Positions 1,817 to 59,199 of a stretch of 64,000 nucleotides of DNA are shown in pieces. Every line of letters starts with the position of its first letter. The stretch's first letter is position 1. Source of the stretch: Candidatus Magasanikiibacteriota bacterium. Its GTDB lineage: Bacteria; Patescibacteriota; Patescibacteriia; Magasanikbacterales; GWA2-37-8. The notes under the pieces were generated by a model. The model worked only from the letters and a program-made list of their open reading frames with translations, was not told where the DNA came from and did no database searches. Made by a program: the position numbers and the translations under genes. The DNA lies in the NCBI GenBank assembly GCA_041666265.1, contig JBAYHH010000001.1, forward strand, positions 8,056 to 72,055, given 5' to 3'.

Positions 1817-3730
1817 ATGTCAAAAGTTTTGGGTATAGACTTGGGCACAACCAACAGTTGTATGGCCATCATCGAGGGCGGCCAGCCGAAAGTTCTCGAA
1901 AATAAAGAAGGCGCGCGTACCACACCGTCGGTGGTCGCTATTAGCAAATCCGGTGAACGCCTGGTGGGTCAGCTTGCCAAGCGTCAAGCCGTCACCAATC
2001 CGGAAAACACATTGTATTCCATCAAGCGTCTCATTGGTCGTCGGTTTACCGACTCCGAAGTTCAGCGCGATCTCAAACTGATGCCGTACAAAATCGTGCA
2101 AGCGGGTGAGGGCGTGAAAGTGGCGATGCAGGGAAAAGAATATTCACCGCAAGAAATCTCGGCGATGATTTTGGGCAAAATGAAAGCTGATGCCGAAGAA
2201 CGCATTGGTGAAAAAATTACCGACGCGATTATCACCGTGCCGGCGTATTTTGATGATTCGCAACGCCAGGCCACCAAAGACGCGGGTGTGATTGCCGGTC
2301 TTAATGTTTTGCGCATTATAAACGAACCGACCGCGGCCGCGCTCGCTTATGGTTTTGACAAAAAGACCGAACAAAAAATCGCGGTGTACGATCTCGGCGG
2401 CGGCACTTTTGATATTTCCATTCTTGAAGTCGCGCCGGATAATGTTCAGGTGCTTTCCACCAATGGCGACACCCATCTCGGTGGTGATGACTTTGACCAG
2501 GTTTTGATTCAATATATTTTGGATGAATTCAAAAAAGATCAAGGCATTGATCTGTCCAAAGACAATCTTGCGTTACAACGCATCAAGGAAGCGGCCGAAA
2601 AAGCCAAGATAGAACTGTCCACTTCACAAGAAACCGAAATCAACCAGCCGTTTATTACTTCTGACTCCAACGGTCCCAAACATTTGGTCATGAAACTTAC
2701 TCGCTCCAAATTGGAAGAACTGGTAGGGGATTTGGTGCAACGCTCGCTTGGTCCGGTGCAAAAGGCGCTCGACGATGCCAAACTCAAAGTCAGTGATTTG
2801 CATGAAGTGGTGATGGTCGGCGGTATGACCCGCATGCCACTGGTGATTCAAACAGTCGAGAAATTTTTTGGCAAAAAAGCGAATATCACGGTAAACCCGG
2901 ATGAAGTGGTGGCGATTGGCGCCGGTGTGCAGGGTGGTGTGCTCAAAGGCGATGTCAAAGATATTTTACTTTTGGATGTGACACCTTTGTCGCTTGGTTT
3001 GGAAACCATGGGTAGTGTGATGACCAAATTGATTGAACGCAACACCACTATTCCAACCAGCAAGACGCAAGTTTTTTCTACCGCGGCCGACAATCAGCCG
3101 GGCGTGGAGATCCATGTTTTGCAAGGCGAGCGCCCGATGGCTGGCGACAACAAATCGCTCGGTCGGTTTATGCTCGACGGTATCCCGCCGGCCCCGCGCG
3201 GTGTGCCGCAGGTGGAAGTAACTTTTGACATTGATGCCAACGGCATTTTGAATGTCAAAGCCAAAGACAAAGCCACCAACAAGGAACAAAGCATCAAGAT
3301 CACGGCGTCCACCGGTTTGTCCAAAGACGAAGTGGAACGCATGAAAAAAGAGGCTGAAACGCACGCCGATGAAGATAAGAAAAAACAAGAACTGATCGAA
3401 ACGCGCAATTTGGCGGACACGATGGTATACACCACCGAAAAAATGATGAAAGAAGTGGAAGAAAAAAAAGTCGCCATCACCGATGATGAAAAGAAAAATG
3501 TGGAAGAGGGGATCAAGTATGTGAAGGATTGCAAAGACAAAGATGATGTGGAAGCGATCAAAAAAGCCAGCGAAGCGCTATCCAAGGCGGCGCAGGTGGT
3601 GGGGGCGAAGATGTATAGTGCGAATAGTGCTTCAAATAGTGCGAATGGTAAGGCGAATGATGCGAATACGAACGACGGTGACGCGTCTAAGCAAGATCAG
3701 GGTCCGATTGAAGGCGAGGTGGTGAAATAA
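1817..3730 (+). CDS. dnaK: molecular chaperone DnaK (Hsp70)
   Basis: 637 aa with canonical Hsp70 motifs ([25 protein letters not shown]). Low-complexity S/N/A C-terminal tail. Confidence 0.97.
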
Positions 3731-50579: not shown

Positions 50580-51734
50580 ATGTCATTAATCGACAAACTA
50601 AAAAATGAACCGAAATTCCGTCAGGATCAAATTTACCGCGCCTGGTTTTCCACCGGCATGGTTTCGTATACCGCGATCACCACTCTTCCCAAAAATTTGC
50701 GCATAGCGCTCCAAGACGAACCATGGACAACGGTGAAGCTGCAAATCATGCAACGCAGTGAGCTCGACGGCACGCAAAAAGCCCTGCTTACGCTGGCCGA
50801 CGGCGCGGGTATCGAGACAGTGCTGATGGGTCGGAAAAATAAACGAGCGACACGCGAGAGCGATCAACGCTATACTATTTGCATTTCATCGCAGGTCGGC
50901 TGTCCGATGGGGTGTGTGTTTTGCGCCACCGGCAAAATGGGATTTAAGCGCAATTTGACGGCGCGCGAAATCGTCGATCAGGTGCGGTTTTGGATTGATT
51001 ATTTGAAGCGCGAAGAGCCGGCCACGACCAGTGGTGGGCAGGGGATACAAAATAAATTTTTGGGCCAAGCTATCTCTAACATCGTCCTCATGGGCCAGGG
51101 CGAACCGTTGTTGAATTATGACAATGTCAAGCTGGCGCTCAATATCATTCTGAAATACGCCGAGATGGGTCCGCGTCAGATCACCGTTTCGACGGTGGGG
51201 GTGCCGGCAGTGATGGAAAAAATGGTCGTTGATCCGGAATGGCCCCCGGTGCGATTCGCGCTTTCGCTTCATAATCCGATTGAAGAAGAACGAAAGAAAT
51301 TGATTCCCTCGCACCAAAAAGATTTTCTAAAATTTTTGGTTGAATGGAGCAAAACATATCACGCGCGTTTCAATTCGCGGACGCAGTTTATCGGACTGGA
51401 ATACACGATCGTGCCGGGTGAAAACGACAGCGAACGCCATCTGAAAGCGATGATTAAGTTCGCGAGTAAACTCGGCAAGGTGCGTATCAATTTGATACCG
51501 CTCAACACCACTACTGCCATCAGCCCGCGCGTCAGTTTGGCACCGACAACCACTAAGCTCAGATCAAATTCGAATATTCGTTTCGCGCCCATCAACGATC
51601 CGCTCGATACCCCGATCGAACACTGGCACCATCGTTTGATGGACTGTGGTTTTACCACTACTATTCGGCGTTCACAGGGGCAAGATATCGCTGCCGCTTG
51701 TGGACAATTGGCGTTGGGTCAGGCAAAGGGGTGA
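50580..51734 (+). CDS. rlmN: 23S rRNA (adenine2503-C2)-methyltransferase RlmN (radical SAM)
   Basis: CPMGCVFCATG radical-SAM cluster motif and a second conserved Cys region. ORF 50535; ATG at 50580 is preferred. Confidence 0.85.
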   Translation: MSLIDKLKNEPKFRQDQIYRAWFSTGMVSYTAITTLPKNLRIALQDEPWTTVKLQIMQRSELDGTQKALLTLADGAGIETVLMGRKNKRATRESDQRYTICISSQVGCPMGCVFCATGKMGFKRNLTAREIVDQVRFWIDYLKREEPATTSGGQGIQNKFLGQAISNIVLMGQGEPLLNYDNVKLALNIILKYAEMGPRQITVSTVGVPAVMEKMVVDPEWPPVRFALSLHNPIEEERKKLIPSHQKDFLKFLVEWSKTYHARFNSRTQFIGLEYTIVPGENDSERHLKAMIKFASKLGKVRINLIPLNTTTAISPRVSLAPTTTKLRSNSNIRFAPINDPLDTPIEHWHHRLMDCGFTTTIRRSQGQDIAAACGQLALGQAKG

Positions 51735-53283: not shown

Positions 53284-55014
53284 ATGAATTTATCCATGCT
53301 CAAGACAAAAAAATTTTGGATCATCACCGCAGTGGTTTTGGTAGTCGCTTGGATCGGTTACGGCCAGTACAAAAAATCTACCGCTCTGCCTGATTATGAT
53401 ACGGTCACGGTGGCGCGCGGGGACATCGCTCAAACCGTGGAGGCGACCGGCAAGATTCAATCCGCTAACGACTTGCAGATGCGTTTTGAAACCGCTGGTA
53501 CTTTGGGTGAAATCAAAGTTCAAGAAGGCGATGTGGTCAAGACGGGTCAAATGCTCGCTTCTTTGCGCGCGAGCGAATTATCCGCCGCCGTTGCTCAAGC
53601 CCAAGCTAATCTAAATCAAAAAATCGCCGGCGCCAATGATCAAGAACGCGCGTATTACAAAGCGCTCGCCGATCAAGCGCTCGCCGATCTCAATAAAACT
53701 CGCTCGGACACCGCCAATTCCATTTCTTCTTATGAAGCCGGAGTGGAAACCGCGAAAAACAACATGAAGCTGGCCGAAGGCGGAGAGGATAGTCGGATTG
53801 TCAATCAAGAATACGATGACGCGGTGGCGGTTTTGCAGGCGACCCTATCCAAGCTTGATGACGGAATGACTCAAGCCGACAATATCTTGGGTATTGACAA
53901 TACACTCGCTAACGACACCTTTGAAGCCAATTTATCTCTCTTAAATTCCAGTAAATTGAATGTGGCCAATTCTGCGTATTACTCCGCTCGCACCGCGCGC
54001 GATAGCGCTCGCGCTGCTATCATCGCGTTGAACACCATTAGTGTTCATTCTGCCGTTGACAGCGCCGTTTTATGGGCTGAGGACGCGCTGTCCAAAACCA
54101 GTATATTGCTTTCCGGCGTGGCCGATGTGCTCGCATCCACTCCGCCGTTGGGTGGTTTGACGCAAACAGAATTGGATGCCAAAAAAACGATTATTGCCGC
54201 GATGCGCACGACGATTTCGACCCAATATACGACTATGATCAGTGAGTCGCAAGCGCTTGCCGACGCGAAAAATAGCTATAATACTTATTTGGTGGCGTAC
54301 AATAAGGCGGTCAATGATTTGAATAACGCCAAGAGTACCGCGACGAGTGTGGTGGCGATCAAGGAGGCGATGTATAATCAAGCGCTCGCGAATTATGAAA
54401 ATAAAATTTTACCTTCACGCGAAGTCGACCTCGCACCGCTACGCGCCGCTCTCTCACAAGCGCAAGCCAATTACGGCAAGGCGGTTTTACGCGCGCCGAT
54501 TGACGGCGTGATTTCAAAAGTAAACAAAAAGGTGGGTGAGCTGGTATCGGCGGCCGATATCGCGATCGAAATGATCACTCCGCATTTTGAAGTGGAAGTG
54601 GATATTCCCGAAACCGATGTGTCCAAATTAAAATTGGGCGACGCGGTGGTGATTACTTTGGATGCGTTTGGCGATGACACCAAATTTAGCGGCCAAGTGA
54701 TCAGTATTGATCCGGCCAGCACCAACATCCAAGATGTAGTGTATTACAAAGTTAAAGTTTCACTCGACGACACTGATAAGCCGATCAAAACCGGCATGAC
54801 TGCCAATGTGACGGTGGCGACGGAAAAACGCGCGGGAGTTTTGTATGTCCCCAGTCGCGCCGTCCGTACCAATGGTGAAAAATATGTCAAAATTTTGACC
54901 GGCAAAACGGTCACTGATGTGCCGGTAACTCTTGGACTCAAAGCCGACGATGGTAAGGTGGAGATTGTGAGCGGAGTGAATGAGGGTGACATCGTGATTG
55001 TTGGGACGAAGTAA
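53284..55014 (+). CDS. efflux pump periplasmic adaptor (HlyD/MacA-like membrane fusion protein)
   Basis: N-terminal TM. Long coiled-coil A/Q/N-rich hairpin. C-terminal beta-barrel/MPD region. Confidence 0.8.
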   Translation: MNLSMLKTKKFWIITAVVLVVAWIGYGQYKKSTALPDYDTVTVARGDIAQTVEATGKIQSANDLQMRFETAGTLGEIKVQEGDVVKTGQMLASLRASELSAAVAQAQANLNQKIAGANDQERAYYKALADQALADLNKTRSDTANSISSYEAGVETAKNNMKLAEGGEDSRIVNQEYDDAVAVLQATLSKLDDGMTQADNILGIDNTLANDTFEANLSLLNSSKLNVANSAYYSARTARDSARAAIIALNTISVHSAVDSAVLWAEDALSKTSILLSGVADVLASTPPLGGLTQTELDAKKTIIAAMRTTISTQYTTMISESQALADAKNSYNTYLVAYNKAVNDLNNAKSTATSVVAIKEAMYNQALANYENKILPSREVDLAPLRAALSQAQANYGKAVLRAPIDGVISKVNKKVGELVSAADIAIEMITPHFEVEVDIPETDVSKLKLGDAVVITLDAFGDDTKFSGQVISIDPASTNIQDVVYYKVKVSLDDTDKPIKTGMTANVTVATEKRAGVLYVPSRAVRTNGEKYVKILTGKTVTDVPVTLGLKADDGKVEIVSGVNEGDIVIVGTK

Positions 55015-55019
55015 TCCTT

Positions 55020-55406
55020 TAAATTGTCATCCCCGCGCAGGCGGGGATCCAGAGTATTATTTTATGTTAGGGAGGAATTATAATGTTTACATTTTAGCTA
55101 GTAAAAGAAACGGTACATTATATATTGGTGTCACAAATAATTTGATTCGCAGAATCTATGAGCACAAAAATAATTTGGTTGATGGATTTACTAAAAATTA
55201 CAGCATTCACAATTTAGTGTATTATGAAAGTTACAATGAGGTCGAGAATGCTATTACGAGAGAAAAGCAACTAAAAAAATGGGATAGAAAATGGAAAATA
55301 AGAATTATTGAAGAAATGAATCCACACTGGCGTGATTTGTATGAGGAATTAAATCCAATTTATTGATTGGCGACTGGATCCCCGCCTGCGCGGGGATGAC
55401 AATTTA
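55020..55406 (+). mobile_element. miniature TIR-flanked cassette carrying a GIY-YIG nuclease gene, inserted between macA-like and macB-like genes
   Basis: Perfect 31-bp terminal inverted repeats: 55020..55050 (TAAATTGTCATCCCCGCGCAGGCGGGGATCC) and 55376..55406 (exact reverse complement). Each TIR is internally palindromic (ATCCCCGC..GCGGGGAT). Confidence 0.75.
55064..55366 (+). CDS. GIY-YIG nuclease family protein (small, YhbQ/Uri-like)
   Basis: VYILASKRNGTLYIGVTNNLIRRIYEHK plus conserved E/N downstream is the GIY-YIG motif. The longer ORF from 54998 reads through the left inverted repeat and is considered an artefact. Confidence 0.8.
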   Translation: MLGRNYNVYILASKRNGTLYIGVTNNLIRRIYEHKNNLVDGFTKNYSIHNLVYYESYNEVENAITREKQLKKWDRKWKIRIIEEMNPHWRDLYEELNPIY

Positions 55407-55412
55407 TACAAT

Positions 55413-56132
55413 ATGCTCATCGAAGTCAAAAATCTTTGTAAAACCTACTTGAGCGGCGATGTGGAAACGCCGGTGCTTCATGATCTGAATTTTACGATGG
55501 ATAAAGGTGAATTTGTGGCGATCATGGGACCGTCGGGGTCGGGCAAATCCACCCTCATGCATGTGCTTAGTTTTATGGACAAGCCCAGTTGCGGCGAGTA
55601 TATTTTTGATGGCAAAAAAGTGAACGAGCTGACCGATGACGAACTGGCGGAGATGCGCAGTAGCGCCGTTGGTTTTATTTTTCAAGCGTTCAATCTTTTG
55701 CCGCGCACGACCGTGATGGAAAATGTCGCATTGCCCCTCGTGTACACCAAAATGTCGGAAAAGGAACGCCGTGAAAAGGCCAAGGCCGCCCTGATATCGG
55801 TGGGGCTTGGTCATCGCTTGGAATATTTTACCAATCAATTATCCGGCGGCGAGAAACAACGCGTGGCAATCGCGCGTGCTCTCGTCAATAATCCGGCAGT
55901 ACTGTTTGCCGATGAGCCGACCGGAAATTTAGATAGTAAATCTGGTTTGCAGGTAATGAAAATTTTGCAGGACTTAAACGAACAAGGCCATACGATTATT
56001 CTCGTTACTCACGAAAAATACACCGCCGAACATGCCAAACGCATTTTGCGTATTCGCGATGGGGTGGTGGAGAGCGATGAAAAGGTGGCGAATCGGCAGA
56101 TCGCGAAGGGGGCGAGTGAGTTGGTGAAGTAA
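55413..56132 (+). CDS. ABC transporter ATP-binding protein (MacB/LolD family)
   Basis: Walker A GPSGSGKST, signature LSGGEKQRVAIARAL, Walker B LFADEPTGNLD. Confidence 0.92.
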   Translation: MLIEVKNLCKTYLSGDVETPVLHDLNFTMDKGEFVAIMGPSGSGKSTLMHVLSFMDKPSCGEYIFDGKKVNELTDDELAEMRSSAVGFIFQAFNLLPRTTVMENVALPLVYTKMSEKERREKAKAALISVGLGHRLEYFTNQLSGGEKQRVAIARALVNNPAVLFADEPTGNLDSKSGLQVMKILQDLNEQGHTIILVTHEKYTAEHAKRILRIRDGVVESDEKVANRQIAKGASELVK

Positions 56133-56232: not shown

Positions 56233-57477
56233 ATGAACATCCTCGAAAACATCCACAGCGTCTGGCGCGTACTGGGTCGCAACAAAATCCGGTCGTTTTT
56301 GACGATGCTCGGGATTATTATCGGGGTGATGGCGGTGATCGTGGTGATGTCGGTGGGGGCGGGAGCACAGAGTCTGATTTTGAATCAAGTAAAAAGTTTG
56401 GGTTCGGATTTGATTGGAGTGTTGCCCGGTGCAAGTGACGAAAAAGGTCCGCCGGCATCGGCGATGGGGATTGTGATTACCACTCTCAAATCCGAAGATG
56501 TTGAAAAAGTGGTCAAAAACGGCGGAGATTTTCCGCATATTACCGCCGGCACCGGCTATGTGAAGGGGTCGAACACTATTACTTGGGACGGCAACGAAGT
56601 TGACAGCTCGTTTACCGGCGTGAACGCGTCTTTGATTGAGGTGGAGGACGCGAAAGTGGGGCAAGGCCGGTTTTTTACCGACGAAGAGGACAAAACCATG
56701 GCGCGCGTGGTAGTGCTCGGCTATCAGGTGGCGAGCGATTTGTTTGGTGATGACGATCCGATAGGTAAAAATATTAAAATAAAAAAAACTACTTTTAATA
56801 TCATCGGCGTGATGGAAAAACGGGGGAGCAGTGGTTTTCAAAATCAGGATACGCAGGTTTTTGTGCCGATGAAAACCGCGCAAAAACTTTTGCTCGGCAT
56901 TGATTATATCAGTTTCGCGCGGCTCAAAGTGGACAAACCGGAAAATGTGGATGAGGCGATGGATTACACGCGTCAAGTTTTGCGGGAACGACATGATATT
57001 GACAATCCAACCGACGATGATTTCAATGTCCGCAGTATGGCGCAGGGCGTGGAAGCGATTACTCAAATTACCGACGCGCTCAAATTTTTTCTCGTGGCGG
57101 TGGCGGCGATCGCTCTCATCGTCGGCGGAATCGGGATCATGAATATCATGCTCGCGGCCGTGCAAGAGCGCACGCGTGAGATCGGACTGCGCAAGGCCGT
57201 GGGCGCGAAAAATCGCCATATTGTGGAGCAGTTTTTGGTCGAAACGGTGATGATTACTTTTGTCGGTGGCGCCATCGGTATCGCGCTCGGTATTTTGATT
57301 TCGTTTATCGTCGCCAAAGTCGCCCAAGGGATGGGCTATGATTGGGATTTTGTTATCAGTTTTGGCGCGATTTTGCTGGGTTGCGGCGTGTCCATTGGCG
57401 TGGGCTTATTGTTTGGGATTTCACCCGCGCGTCAGGCGGCGGCGCTCGATCCGATCGAGGCGTTGAGGTACGAGTAA
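56233..57477 (+). CDS. ABC transporter permease (FtsX-like, MacB periplasmic domain)
   Basis: N-terminal TM, large periplasmic domain, C-terminal FtsX 3-TM module (GIGIMNIM...REIGLRKAVGA). Confidence 0.88.
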   Translation: MNILENIHSVWRVLGRNKIRSFLTMLGIIIGVMAVIVVMSVGAGAQSLILNQVKSLGSDLIGVLPGASDEKGPPASAMGIVITTLKSEDVEKVVKNGGDFPHITAGTGYVKGSNTITWDGNEVDSSFTGVNASLIEVEDAKVGQGRFFTDEEDKTMARVVVLGYQVASDLFGDDDPIGKNIKIKKTTFNIIGVMEKRGSSGFQNQDTQVFVPMKTAQKLLLGIDYISFARLKVDKPENVDEAMDYTRQVLRERHDIDNPTDDDFNVRSMAQGVEAITQITDALKFFLVAVAAIALIVGGIGIMNIMLAAVQERTREIGLRKAVGAKNRHIVEQFLVETVMITFVGGAIGIALGILISFIVAKVAQGMGYDWDFVISFGAILLGCGVSIGVGLLFGISPARQAAALDPIEALRYE

Positions 57478-57530
57478 AATTTTTAATTTGTAATTTTTAA
57501 TTTTCAAACAATAACCAAATAATTCAATTT

Positions 57531-57878
57531 ATGAATTATGATTTGGAGGAGCGTACATTAAAATTTGCCAAAGCAGTTTTGAATATTTTAAAAACAATGC
57601 CGATTAGCTTAATCAATAGTAATATAATCAATCAACTAATTCGTTCCGTCACTAGTGTCGGGGCAAATTATCGGGAAGCTAATGCTGGTAGCTCCAAAAA
57701 AGATTTTAGAAATAAAATATTTATTTGTAGAAAAGAAATTCAAGAGACCAAATATTGGATTGAGTTGCTTGCCGATATTTCTGACGAATGTAGGAGGAAT
57801 CAAATGCGAGTGTTGTGGAAAGAAGCACACGAATTAACTTTGATATTTAATAAAATTTCTTCAAGTCTGAAAGATTAG
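57531..57878 (+). CDS. four-helix-bundle protein (23S rRNA intervening-sequence protein family)
   Basis: LKFAKAV...SVGANYREANAGSSKKDFRNKIFICRKEIQETKYWIELL is the characteristic TIGR02436-type four-helix-bundle signature. Confidence 0.8.
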   Translation: MNYDLEERTLKFAKAVLNILKTMPISLINSNIINQLIRSVTSVGANYREANAGSSKKDFRNKIFICRKEIQETKYWIELLADISDECRRNQMRVLWKEAHELTLIFNKISSSLKD

Positions 57879-57954
57879 AAATTATTGCATTGAAAATTGT
57901 TTAAAAAACTGGCTGCGAACCAGCAATTGTAGAAATTGAAAATTTTAAATTCCC

Positions 57955-59199
57955 ATGAATTTCACCCCCATCCTCCTCGCCTACAAATCTCTCTTCGCGC
58001 AAAAAACGCGCGCGGTTTTGACGATCCTCGGGGTGAGTATTGGGATCGCGGTCGTGATCGCGATCATGGCGGCGGGGCGCGGGTTGGATCACATGGTGAT
58101 GGGGCAGTTGGAAATATATTCTCCCAATACCATCAGTGTGGAAGTGAAAATCCCATCCACCAAACAAGCATCCAACGAAAACGCCATGGGTCAAAGCATG
58201 GGGATCACCATTACCACTTTAGATGAAAAAGATTTGGACGATGTTTCTCGTCATCCCAATATTGTGGCGGCTTATGGCTGGCAAGTAGGGCAGGCGGCGG
58301 TAAAATATGGCGACACCACCAAAATCACCATGCTCATGGGTGAGGGATACAATTTGCAAGAGGTGGAAAAATTTGAGCTTACTGCCGGTCGAATGTATAC
58401 CAAAGAAGAAGAGGACGCGCAGGCGCAAGTGGGGATTTTGGGTTCGGCGACCAAAAAAACTTTATTTGGCGACGATGACGCGGTGGGTAAAACTATTTAT
58501 CTGAAAGGCAAAGCGTTTCGGGTGATCGGCGTGGCCAAAGAACGCGGCGCCACTTTTGGTATGGATATGGACAGCATTGTGCTCATGCCGACCAAGACAT
58601 TACAGAAAAAAATTCTCGGCATTGATTATTATCACAACATCATCGCCAAAGCCAAAGATCGCGCGCTGATTGACTCCACCGTAGAGGATATTAAAGAAAT
58701 CATTCGCGATAATCATGATATTACCAATCCCGATAAGGATGATTTTGCGGTCAATACGATGCAAGAGGCGGCCGATATGCTATCGAGCGTGGTCAATGGA
58801 CTGACACTCTTGCTCGTAGCGCTGGTTTGTGTGTCGCTCGCGGTGGGTGGGGTGGGGATCATGAATATTATGTATGTGTCGGTCACCGAACGAACTTTTG
58901 AAATCGGTTTGCGCAAAGCCGTGGGCGCCAAATCCAAAGACATTTTGTGGCAATTTTTGAGCGAGGCGGTATTGCTCACTTTGAGCGGGGGATTGGTTGG
59001 GATTATTTTGGGCGTACTGCTGGCGTTGTTGATCTATTTTATCGCTACTTATTTTAAATTTTCGTGGGTGTTTTCTGTACCCATTTCTTCCATTGTTTTG
59101 GCGGTCGGATTTTCCGGCGTGGTGGGCTTGATTTTTGGTCTATATCCCGCCAAAAAAGCGGCGAGTTTGGATCCGATTGAGGCGCTCAGACGCGAATAA
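57955..59199 (+). CDS. ABC transporter permease (FtsX-like), second copy
   Basis: Paralogous to 56233..57477 (same motifs: GVGIMNIMYVSVTERTFEIGLRKAVGA). Confidence 0.88.
   Translation: MNFTPILLAYKSLFAQKTRAVLTILGVSIGIAVVIAIMAAGRGLDHMVMGQLEIYSPNTISVEVKIPSTKQASNENAMGQSMGITITTLDEKDLDDVSRHPNIVAAYGWQVGQAAVKYGDTTKITMLMGEGYNLQEVEKFELTAGRMYTKEEEDAQAQVGILGSATKKTLFGDDDAVGKTIYLKGKAFRVIGVAKERGATFGMDMDSIVLMPTKTLQKKILGIDYYHNIIAKAKDRALIDSTVEDIKEIIRDNHDITNPDKDDFAVNTMQEAADMLSSVVNGLTLLLVALVCVSLAVGGVGIMNIMYVSVTERTFEIGLRKAVGAKSKDILWQFLSEAVLLTLSGGLVGIILGVLLALLIYFIATYFKFSWVFSVPISSIVLAVGFSGVVGLIFGLYPAKKAASLDPIEALRRE

Follow-up and report, generated by a model that had tools for sequence, protein, structure and literature searches.

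The SsnA protein of Neisseria meningitidis is a single-domain GIY-YIG nuclease of 94 amino acids (aa), assigned to CDD cd10448 (GIY-YIG_unchar_3) (Chenal et al., Nat Commun 2025, PMC11893778). It binds a 28-nt repeat called NTS (CGTCATTCCCGCGMAVGCGGGAATCYRG) as single-stranded DNA only, and on one strand only; the cut site is 3 nt upstream of the NTS, and duplex DNA and RNA are left untouched (PMC11893778). Here we describe a 387-bp cassette, consisting of one small GIY-YIG gene between two inverted hairpin repeats, in a 64-kb stretch of contig JBAYHH010000001.1 (the window, that is, the whole stretch of DNA that was analysed). The host is a metagenome-assembled genome of Candidatus Magasanikbacteria, a group of Patescibacteria or candidate phyla radiation (CPR). 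Judged from its protein and its repeats, the cassette is almost certainly a module of the Ssn family, in which an ssn gene is framed by two copies of the Ssn-related motif (SRM). The best overall explanation, to which we assign a probability of about 0.85, is an SRM-ssn-SRM module that was gained as a unit and is now a locus-stable resident.

It is known that the 37-nt substrate of SsnA consists of 6 nt before the cut, 3 nt, and the 28-nt NTS (PMC11893778). The enzyme reads the 5' tag (TGTCAT) and the C directly 3' of the stem in the motif folded as a hairpin; the reverse-complement strand is not cut, and activity is lost on an altered stem sequence even when the hairpin is preserved (PMC11893778). 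The Y6A, Y17A, and E64A mutants keep binding and lose cleavage. Cleavage was also shown for three more homologs (one of Wolbachia, the others of two Neisseria species), each with its own variant of the motif and with the cut shifted by one or a few nt (PMC11893778). In vivo, loss of ssnA led to an approximately five-fold higher transformation with NTS-bearing DNA (PMC11893778). Each Neisseria genome contains hundreds of copies of the motif. The SRM is a degenerate motif described by the pattern HGTCWYN(0-2)YYVSBRHN(0-5)WNVSBRGN(0-2)RNCYNB. An SRM was found near 71% of the homologs and on both sides of 42%, and the ssnA homologs stood out for motif flanking among all N. meningitidis proteins (PMC11893778).

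Repeats of a similar build have been classified on their own. Di Nocera et al. (2013, PMC3733652) distinguished two superfamilies among palindromes of the repetitive extragenic palindromic (REP) type, one with a GTAG tag and one with a CGTC tag. In the CGTC superfamily the tag reads CGTC or TGTC, the stem measures 8-9 bp and starts with AT, the loop has 4-5 nt, and the tail is CCA. These repeats are mostly inverted dimers, include dRS3 of Neisseria and the RPE elements of Rickettsia (RPE-6 being in family CGTC-1), and "apparently lack a dedicated transposase" (PMC3733652).

The only sizeable open reading frame (ORF) inside the cassette encodes 100 aa from its first ATG, in agreement with the original prediction, which was made from the letters of the window alone. 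Its GIY-YIG domain (PF01541, E = 1.3e-14) extends from residue 6 to residue 79 and is the only domain of the protein. This size is within the range of the Ssn proteins, SsnA having about 94 aa and the published phylogeny having kept proteins of up to 150 aa. Homology to the family was defined there by blastp to N. meningitidis SsnA with E < 1e-10 and at least 75% query cover (PMC11893778). In our comparison, the 94-codon ortholog of N. gonorrhoeae (L111) was used as a proxy for the meningococcal protein. The window protein is 58% identical to it over 90 of the 94 residues, with no gaps, and a tblastn search of a 7.3-Gb plasmid database matched N. gonorrhoeae chromosomes at E = 2e-21. Furthermore, Tyr9, Tyr20, and Glu67 of the window protein align with the catalytic residues Tyr6, Tyr17, and Glu64 of SsnA. 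The latter three are also present in the gonococcal ORF, around which eight matches to the SRM pattern were found, seven of them fitting the strict NTS consensus. It should be mentioned that L111 (NZ_CP119142.1 1880216-1883476) and NZ_CP119140.1 are 2.17-Mb N. gonorrhoeae records, evidently chromosomes labelled as plasmids. The ssnA ortholog of L111 is unannotated in the PLSDB gene table, and the codon giving the published 94 aa is ATT, not ATG.

Similarity to other GIY-YIG proteins was also evaluated. The catalytic fold is common to the cassette nuclease, the homing endonucleases (I-TevI, Seg), UPF0213/YhbQ, and Slx1. The match to the UPF0213 protein BH0048 (PDB 1zg2) was weak (E = 0.003, 21 bits), at the level of the superfamily and far below the SsnA match, and that to Slx1 had E = 0.12. 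NCBIfam contains no model specific for the window protein, and searches of defence systems, phage families, and solved structures gave marginal matches only. The family itself is large: at least 7,999 database proteins were found at E = 0.001, with 95-100 aa and the best of them 66-78% identical.

The GIY-YIG domain, together with presence/absence polymorphism between related operons and weak matches to PHROG homing endonucleases (E = 0.005-0.008), might suggest a free-standing homing gene of the I-TevI or Seg type, copied into cassette-free alleles by double-strand-break repair. Unlike such enzymes, the 100-aa protein has no DNA-binding domain and lies in no intron or phage context. The model for group-I-intron endonucleases (TIGR01453) gave 19 bits against a cut-off of 56, at residues 8-39 only; no match was found in 50,697 phage records, and two weak ones were found in IMG/VR. 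The tested homologs leave double-stranded DNA uncut (PMC11893778), and the empty sites of the relatives share no conserved target and contain no SRM that could be cut. Considered with the 58% identity to the gonococcal ortholog, these observations make homing most improbable. The original prediction of a selfish or homing-type cassette is thus retained as to a discrete inserted cassette and abandoned as to homing. Its statement that the cassette is not an insertion sequence (IS) of any classical family stands: the sole ORF is the GIY-YIG nuclease, and no HUH/Y1 transposase of the REP/RAYT or IS200/IS605 kind is encoded.

The cassette is bounded by a perfect inverted repeat with two arms of 33 nt, 100% complementary to each other (Table 1). 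Perfect repeats of 31 bp had been predicted; the perfect inversion was observed, and the length is greater by 2 nt on the inward side (..CCAG). The 25-nt core of the repeat occurs at two places only in the window, 0 being expected from 100 shuffles. Each arm can form the predicted hairpin, ATCCCCGC-gcag-GCGGGGAT, with an 8-bp stem and a 4-nt loop. When folded as single-stranded DNA, the hairpins have an energy of -9.7 kcal/mol, with z = -4.0 and -3.2 compared with shuffles. The contrast between GC-rich repeats and an AT-rich interior was also confirmed: the GC content is 61% in the arms and 29% in the interior, and 49% in the two neighbouring genes. The gaps between SRM and gene are 11 nt ahead of the ssn start codon and 7 nt past the stop codon.

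The published SRM pattern matched the window at two positions only, with 0.13 expected in simulated sequence. Both are at the cassette ends, inverted, with the tags outward; in other words, the gene has an SRM on both sides within the 500 bp used in the published survey. The window motif (TGTCATCCCCGCGCAGGCGGGGATCCAG) differs from the NTS consensus at 3 of 28 positions, namely 1, 7, and 22. The changes at positions 7 and 22 are a compensatory exchange of one stem pair, T-A to C-G. A canonical NTS is allowed at most one mismatch, and by its sequence the window motif is an SRM variant, not a canonical NTS. The order TGTC, ATCCCCGC, GCAG, GCGGGGAT, CCAG is the anatomy of family CGTC-1, and on this basis the cassette termini are assigned to the CGTC-tagged REP superfamily (CGTC-1, TGTC tag variant). 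A dispersed multi-copy repeat family was not seen in the window, where the two copies flanking ssn are the only ones. The cassette is a member of the family published in 2025, with its NTS/SRM-ssnA-SRM architecture, and not a new class of element. By analogy with the four homologs for which the link is experimental, the repeats are best read as the recognition sites of the enzyme.

Located immediately past one gene and immediately ahead of another, the GC-rich stem-loops might also be ordinary operon signals (a terminator, an attenuator, or an mRNA stabiliser), the gene between them being incidental; stabilisation of mRNA by REP-type hairpins is possible (PMC3733652). Promoter and terminator scans gave nothing above shuffled expectation: no terminator-like site was predicted, and the stems are not followed by a T-run. 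Moreover, the SRM pattern is matched including its unpaired tag and tail, and neither hairpin is present in the orthologous operons described below. A related possibility is a chimeric insert produced during assembly. Three assemblies, which may share reads, agree at every base of the cassette and of its two junctions: the window, JGI Ga0376277_0039261, and ENA k141_1549520; in one of them the ssn ORF was overlooked by the gene caller. Operon signals and chimera alike are scarcely credible explanations.

Table 1. Features of the cassette and of the surrounding operon in the window.
Feature	Position	Strand	Remarks
Left terminal inverted repeat, 33 nt	55020..55052	+	SRM at 55025-55052 (TGTCATCCCCGCGCAGGCGGGGATCCAG) plus outer 5 nt TAAAT
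Left SRM hairpin core	55029..55048	+	Stem ATCCCCGC/GCGGGGAT, loop GCAG; -9.7 kcal/mol, z = -4.0
Right terminal inverted repeat, 33 nt	55374..55406	-	SRM at 55374-55401; hairpin core at 55378-55397
Predicted Ssn nick, top strand, when single-stranded	55021..55022	+	3 nt 5' of SRM (TA^AAT-TGTCAT); by analogy to N. meningitidis SsnA
Predicted Ssn nick, bottom strand, when single-stranded	55404..55405	-	3 nt 5' of right SRM; by analogy to N. meningitidis SsnA
ssn gene, 100-aa single-domain GIY-YIG nuclease	55064..55366	+	PF01541, E = 1.3e-14; Y9/Y20/E67 aligned with SsnA Y6/Y17/E64
HlyD-family membrane-fusion (adaptor) gene, upstream	53284..55014	+	Stop 5 nt ahead of left repeat
ABC-transporter ATPase gene, downstream	55413..56132	+	ATG 6 nt past right repeat
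Two MacB_PCD/FtsX permease genes, separate	56233-57477, 57955-59199		Downstream of ATPase gene

A species-level scan with one genome per species gave 570 loci with ssn homologs, of which the best 80 (L002-L081, 56-72% identity) were kept. They span Smithella, Saccharibacteria, Dehalococcoidales, Brocadia, Planctomycetota, Alpha- and Gammaproteobacteria, Nitrospirota, Bacteroidota, Cloacimonadota, and others. The frame around the gene was sought only by complementarity of the upstream and downstream flanks; covariation statistics on motifs preselected for pairing were not used, as they would have been circular. By flank complementarity alone, an inverted repeat of the form TGTCAT-stem-loop-stem-ATCCAG was found at approximately 45 of the 80 loci, and a looser hairpin search gave the same frame at 51 of 81. 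The stems vary by locus and are always paired (TTCCCGC/GCGGGAA, TTCTGAAC/GTTCAGAA, CCCTGGGC/GCCCAGGG, and CATCCGC/GCGGATG). A strict SRM was present within 500 bp at 56 of the 80 loci (70%), which is close to the published 71%, and was absent from this range at the other 24. On both sides it was present at 21 of 80, which is below the published 42%. The TGTCAT-hairpin-ATCCAG frame at about 50 of 80 homologs from many phyla supports the conclusion that the nuclease gene and the repeats belong together. The original prediction was to be given up if the repeat proved to be a REP-like palindrome found independently of GIY-YIG genes and if relatives carried the gene without repeats. This was observed in part: the terminus is such a palindrome, and in other genomes it forms arrays or dimers independent of ssn (L066, L089, L111); by the strict pattern, 24 of the 80 homologs lack an SRM within 500 bp.

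The existence of solo and arrayed motifs without ssn could be explained by a non-autonomous element, similar to a miniature inverted-repeat transposable element, that carries the GIY-YIG gene as a passenger and is mobilised in trans. An IS110/Piv-type enzyme would be a candidate, like the phage recombinase of which dRS3 is a known target (PMC11893778, introduction), and the CGTC-tagged REPs have no associated transposase gene (PMC3733652). However, the association of gene and repeat, seen at about 50 of 80 loci across phyla, is too consistent for a chance passenger. In addition, the ssnA homologs were singled out by motif flanking among all N. meningitidis proteins, and the motif is bound and cut by the enzyme in the four homologs tested (PMC11893778). 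A passenger role of the nuclease is accordingly considered very unlikely, though somewhat less so than homing.

The two ends of a locus are seldom the same: the left motif equals the right one in 10 of 50 loci only. Nevertheless, ends from the same locus are closer to each other than ends from different loci (2.6 vs 4.5 mismatches), and none of 10,000 permutations gave a value as low. The correlation between motif and protein distances is weak (Mantel r = 0.22, p ~ 0.035). Left and right hairpins are strongly different at L003, L004, L032, L056, and L068, with 12-15 mismatches in 26 nt; in the example of TTCCCGCGAAAGCGGGAA vs TTCCCAACTTGATTGGGAA, the TGTCAT tag and the ATCCAG tail are retained. 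Such divergence suggests independent turnover of the ends, or recombination between motifs at different places. The repeat stops exactly at xGTCAT, with no extension, in 32 of 50 loci, and extends by 3 nt or more in two. The extra TAAAT seen in the window is an exception within the family. Directly 5' of the xGTCAT tag, T is favoured (47 of 100 ends), and the six outside nt are generally T-rich at ssn loci. This outer T could be a one-base extension of the motif, or could reflect a preference for AT-rich targets.

Motifs were also found in numbers or without a gene between them. In an alphaproteobacterial metagenome-assembled genome (L066, CAVUHX010000037.1), 23 SRMs in alternating orientation lie at 1125-2894, approximately 50-90 nt from start to start, directly upstream of an ssn homolog at 3001-3291. 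This cluster is similar to a bacterial interspersed mosaic element, and it shows that the SRM multiplies independently of ssn in some genomes. In the Magasanikbacteria-like L089 (Ga0172381_10000031), two SRMs with their tags outward lie 11 nt apart at 951-1017, with no gene between. This dimer is in frame within an rlmN-like radical-SAM ORF (peptide ...CHPRESGDPRNDMADSRLRGND...), the ortholog of which is at 50685-51719 in the window. The arrangement is reminiscent of RPE repeats located within genes in Rickettsia, or of a derivative of the cassette in the style of REPINs. It yielded no clean second pair of filled and empty sites: the window ortholog contains a filler of about the same length and unrelated sequence, and aligning the DNA gave no information.

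The site of the cassette was compared with orthologous operons. With the adaptor protein as query, 27 related loci were found in metagenomes, 24 of them including the adaptor-ATPase junction, with HlyD identities from 32% to 76%. The gene for the CCA-adding enzyme is upstream in 8 of the 10 closest relatives, and the other two end before that position. In all 24 operons the ATPase gene follows the adaptor gene without a GIY-YIG gene or an SRM between them; the comparison with orthologous operons for an empty site, which had been proposed as a check, gave cassette-free junctions throughout. The junction is TAATATG in L084 and L085 (adaptor 75-76% and ATPase 84% identical), 14 nt in L087, L088, L090, and L097, and 50-128 nt of unrelated filler in L082, L083, L086, and L089. 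The spacing is mostly 7-14 nt in the orthologs vs 398 bp in the window. Because the cassette is absent from all 24 orthologous junctions, we infer by parsimony that the repeat-gene-repeat unit entered a compact operon spacer as a whole. The predicted location between macA-like and macB-like genes holds as to the adaptor stop and the ATPase ATG. It does not hold as to a macB-like gene downstream: the transporter is split, and the neighbour is the ATPase only. The cassette is present, without any difference, on every contig that encodes exactly this adaptor and this ATPase, so that an empty site at strain level was not found. In the adaptor-ATPase spacer of L089, TAAATTG ... CAATTTA is similar to the outer bases of the window's repeat; as a possible footprint of a cassette, this 12-nt, 83% match in AT-rich DNA is too weak to be interpreted.

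Whether the unit moves by itself is a separate question. In an autonomous minimal transposon, Ssn would nick both hairpin ends, and a unit of approximately 383 bp would move via a single-strand intermediate and host repair. The IS-like look of NTS-ssnA-NTS was remarked in the founding paper, where mobility and later domestication were put forward as a hypothesis (PMC11893778). Several observations are in line with it: the gain between two tightly coupled genes, the 60-76% identity of the proteins across many phyla, the AT-richness of ssn, the mutual likeness of the two ends within a locus, the gene-less heads-out dimer of L089, which would correspond to REPINs as opposed to RAYT genes, and the extension of the window's perfect repeat by 2 nt (TA) past each predicted nick. 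The AT-richness is a property of the family: in 79 of 80 loci the GC content of ssn is below that of its flanks (mean -12 points), and it follows host GC (r = 0.89). For this reason the contrast in composition was rejected as a sign of recent arrival, and the correlation suggests long residence.

Other results speak against such a transposon. A target-site duplication was not found at offsets of 0-5 nt in 50 other loci, where direct repeats were at chance level, and no flank is conserved beyond xGTCAT. The flanking TTTA/TAAATT, to which attention had been drawn as a possible duplication, is thus unsupported across the family, and the same holds for the 'TA' at the predicted nicks; both were rejected as family properties. 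Near-identical cassettes in different contexts were absent among 81 loci, the best pair having 79% DNA identity. The identical Ssn proteins P0095 (21 contigs), P0014 (10), and P0045 (11) each have one context, with the same tight motif frame. As a side observation, the cassette of L124 (JGI Ga0490022_001073, 2470-2834) has perfect SRMs that are separated from the start and stop codons by 3 nt each. It lies between dnaK and DUF4230-dnaJ in a conserved same-strand cluster, and this locus is the same in 10 of 10 contigs with the identical protein. The strongly different left and right hairpins at the five loci mentioned above are likewise difficult to reconcile with a transposon of this type. A phage or plasmid vehicle was considered and rejected: the phage searches described above gave no carriage, and the plasmid-database matches were mostly large alphaproteobacterial replicons labelled non-mobilizable, with several chromosome-sized records (1.7-4.9 Mb) entered as plasmids.

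The lack of target duplication, the restriction of identical proteins to one place, and the tracking of host GC by ssn together point to rare movement, with most copies acting as resident single-copy genes, like RAYT genes. The most probable present state of the cassette is that of a single-copy resident with a stable locus, not that of an IS in active transposition. That it is still moving by means of its own nuclease seems unlikely, and the minimal transposon described above is to be judged as doubtful to the same degree.

The enzymology of the homologs, i.e. recognition of a single-stranded hairpin and a cut about 3 nt 5' of it, probably applies here. By analogy, the window protein would bind its motif only as hairpin-folded single-stranded DNA, would ignore double-stranded DNA and RNA, and would cut the motif strand at the positions given in Table 1. 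Since the motifs are inverted and the complement strand is not a substrate, each strand would have one cuttable site, at the 5' border of the cassette on that strand. Any copy of the locus in single-stranded form, as in transformation, in conjugation, or in a lagging-strand template, would then be severed at the cassette border. The only targets within the window would be the cassette's own borders. With one cuttable site per strand, a single strand could not be excised at both ends. To our knowledge, hydrolytic GIY-YIG enzymes form no covalent intermediate and perform no strand transfer on their own. The inverted geometry and this chemistry imply that the nuclease alone could not excise and re-join the element; any movement would have to borrow host replication or repair. 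The gene cluster that would have been entered in this Magasanikbacteria lineage consists of the CCA-adding enzyme, the adaptor, the ATPase, and the two permeases.

Several points weigh against an SRM-ssn-SRM module gained as a unit. SsnA is intolerant of stem changes, so that the pairing of enzyme and site is deduced here from adjacency only. The window is limited to 64 kb, and SRM copies might exist elsewhere in the genome. The perfect repeat reaches 5 nt (TAAAT) beyond the family-wide motif boundary, which is explained by none of the readings considered. Among the operon relatives, even the closest have an adaptor protein only 71-76% identical to that of the window, which is too distant to date the insertion or to give the exact pre-insertion sequence. 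A GIY-YIG enzyme is incapable of strand transfer alone and does not by itself account for the entry of the unit into the spacer; a target-site duplication is absent. The structure recognised in the original prediction is real, and its reading as an inserted nuclease cassette that belongs to no classical IS family was confirmed.

The cassette may be compared with other single-stranded-DNA systems. In IS200/IS605, subterminal hairpins are recognised in single-stranded DNA and no target-site duplication is made, as seems to be the case here. However, both IS200/IS605 ends are read on one strand by an HUH transposase and are not inverted repeats, whereas the cassette ends are inverted, with one predicted cut site per strand. 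REP/RAYT systems (REPtrons) and REPINs are similar in that a single-copy, locus-stable gene lies between two inverted hairpins that would, by analogy, be recognised as single-stranded DNA, and gene-less inverted dimers and arrays occur elsewhere in the Ssn family (L089, L066). REP-associated tyrosine transposases (RAYTs) are HUH/Y1 homologs that form a covalent intermediate and use a GTAG tag, whereas the cassette has a hydrolytic GIY-YIG nuclease and the TGTC/CGTC tag. With the CGTC-1 REPs the cassette shares the TGTC tag, the 8-bp stem starting with AT, the 4-nt loop, the CCA tail, and the inverted pairing. It differs from them in that a nuclease gene is framed, no dedicated enzyme having been found for those repeats (PMC3733652), and in that the repeat is not dispersed within the window. 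The agreement with the Ssn family extends to the single-domain GIY-YIG protein of about 100 aa, the aligned Tyr/Tyr/Glu residues, and a 28-nt motif (TGTC tag, 8-bp stem, 4-nt loop, CCAG tail) inverted on both sides. The differences are the two motif copies in 64 kb compared with hundreds per Neisseria genome, the three departures from the canonical NTS, the 5 nt by which the perfect repeat exceeds the motif, and the predicted status of cutting. In addition, the host belongs to the CPR, a group unnamed in the founding paper (PMC11893778).

The module itself has already been described, and what is new is its occurrence in a Magasanikbacteria host. The operon comparison adds comparative evidence that a repeat-gene-repeat unit can arrive whole in a new intergenic site, which was only a hypothesis drawn from the IS-like layout (PMC11893778). 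Evidence in the opposite direction, against frequent movement of ssn cassettes, is also added. The variant motif and its enzyme are a further candidate pair for the single-stranded-DNA cutting tools that have been proposed from Ssn enzymes (PMC11893778).

If the nuclease did drive movement, the origin of the CGTC-tagged REPs, for which no enzyme was known in 2013, would be explained and a new transposition chemistry would be found. In this speculative scenario, which we hold to be improbable but worth stating, SRM-ssn-SRM would be an autonomous element of less than 400 bp moving through single-stranded DNA by a hydrolytic GIY-YIG nuclease. The dispersed CGTC-type REPs (dRS3, RPE, and others) would be its non-autonomous offspring; dRS3 itself was known much earlier than 2013. 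No DDE, HUH, serine, or tyrosine transposase would be used, and the gain in the CPR operon would be a snapshot of one insertion. Such an element would be among the smallest self-mobilising prokaryotic elements known to us.

Other small inserts were observed in the same operon. In the window, a second AT-rich insert at 57478-57954 lies between the two permease genes. Its gene (57531-57878) encodes a four-helix-bundle protein of 115 aa that belongs to the '23S rRNA intervening-sequence protein' family (PF05635, E = 5.9e-16; TIGR02436, E = 2.7e-21). The insert has no SRM, and at its borders lies an imperfect inverted repeat rich in AT (57475-57492 / 57930-57947; 18 nt, 89%). The permease-permease junction is 0-9 nt in five relatives and is occupied by a 62-nt palindromic filler in L089. 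At the same two junctions, other fillers of 60-130 nt with imperfect inverted repeats are present in L083 (1827-1954), L086 (1589-1699), and L089 (6796-6857), the repeats being 18 nt (89%) in L086 and 16-18 nt (89-94%) in L089. The spacers of this operon seem to have been colonised repeatedly by small palindromic inserts. The gap between the genes for the CCA-adding enzyme and the adaptor is 9 nt in the window, and extra small ORFs are found there in L082 (1072-1923) and L089 (2737-2961); each has a 74-aa ORF in this gap, and L082 also has one of 170 aa.

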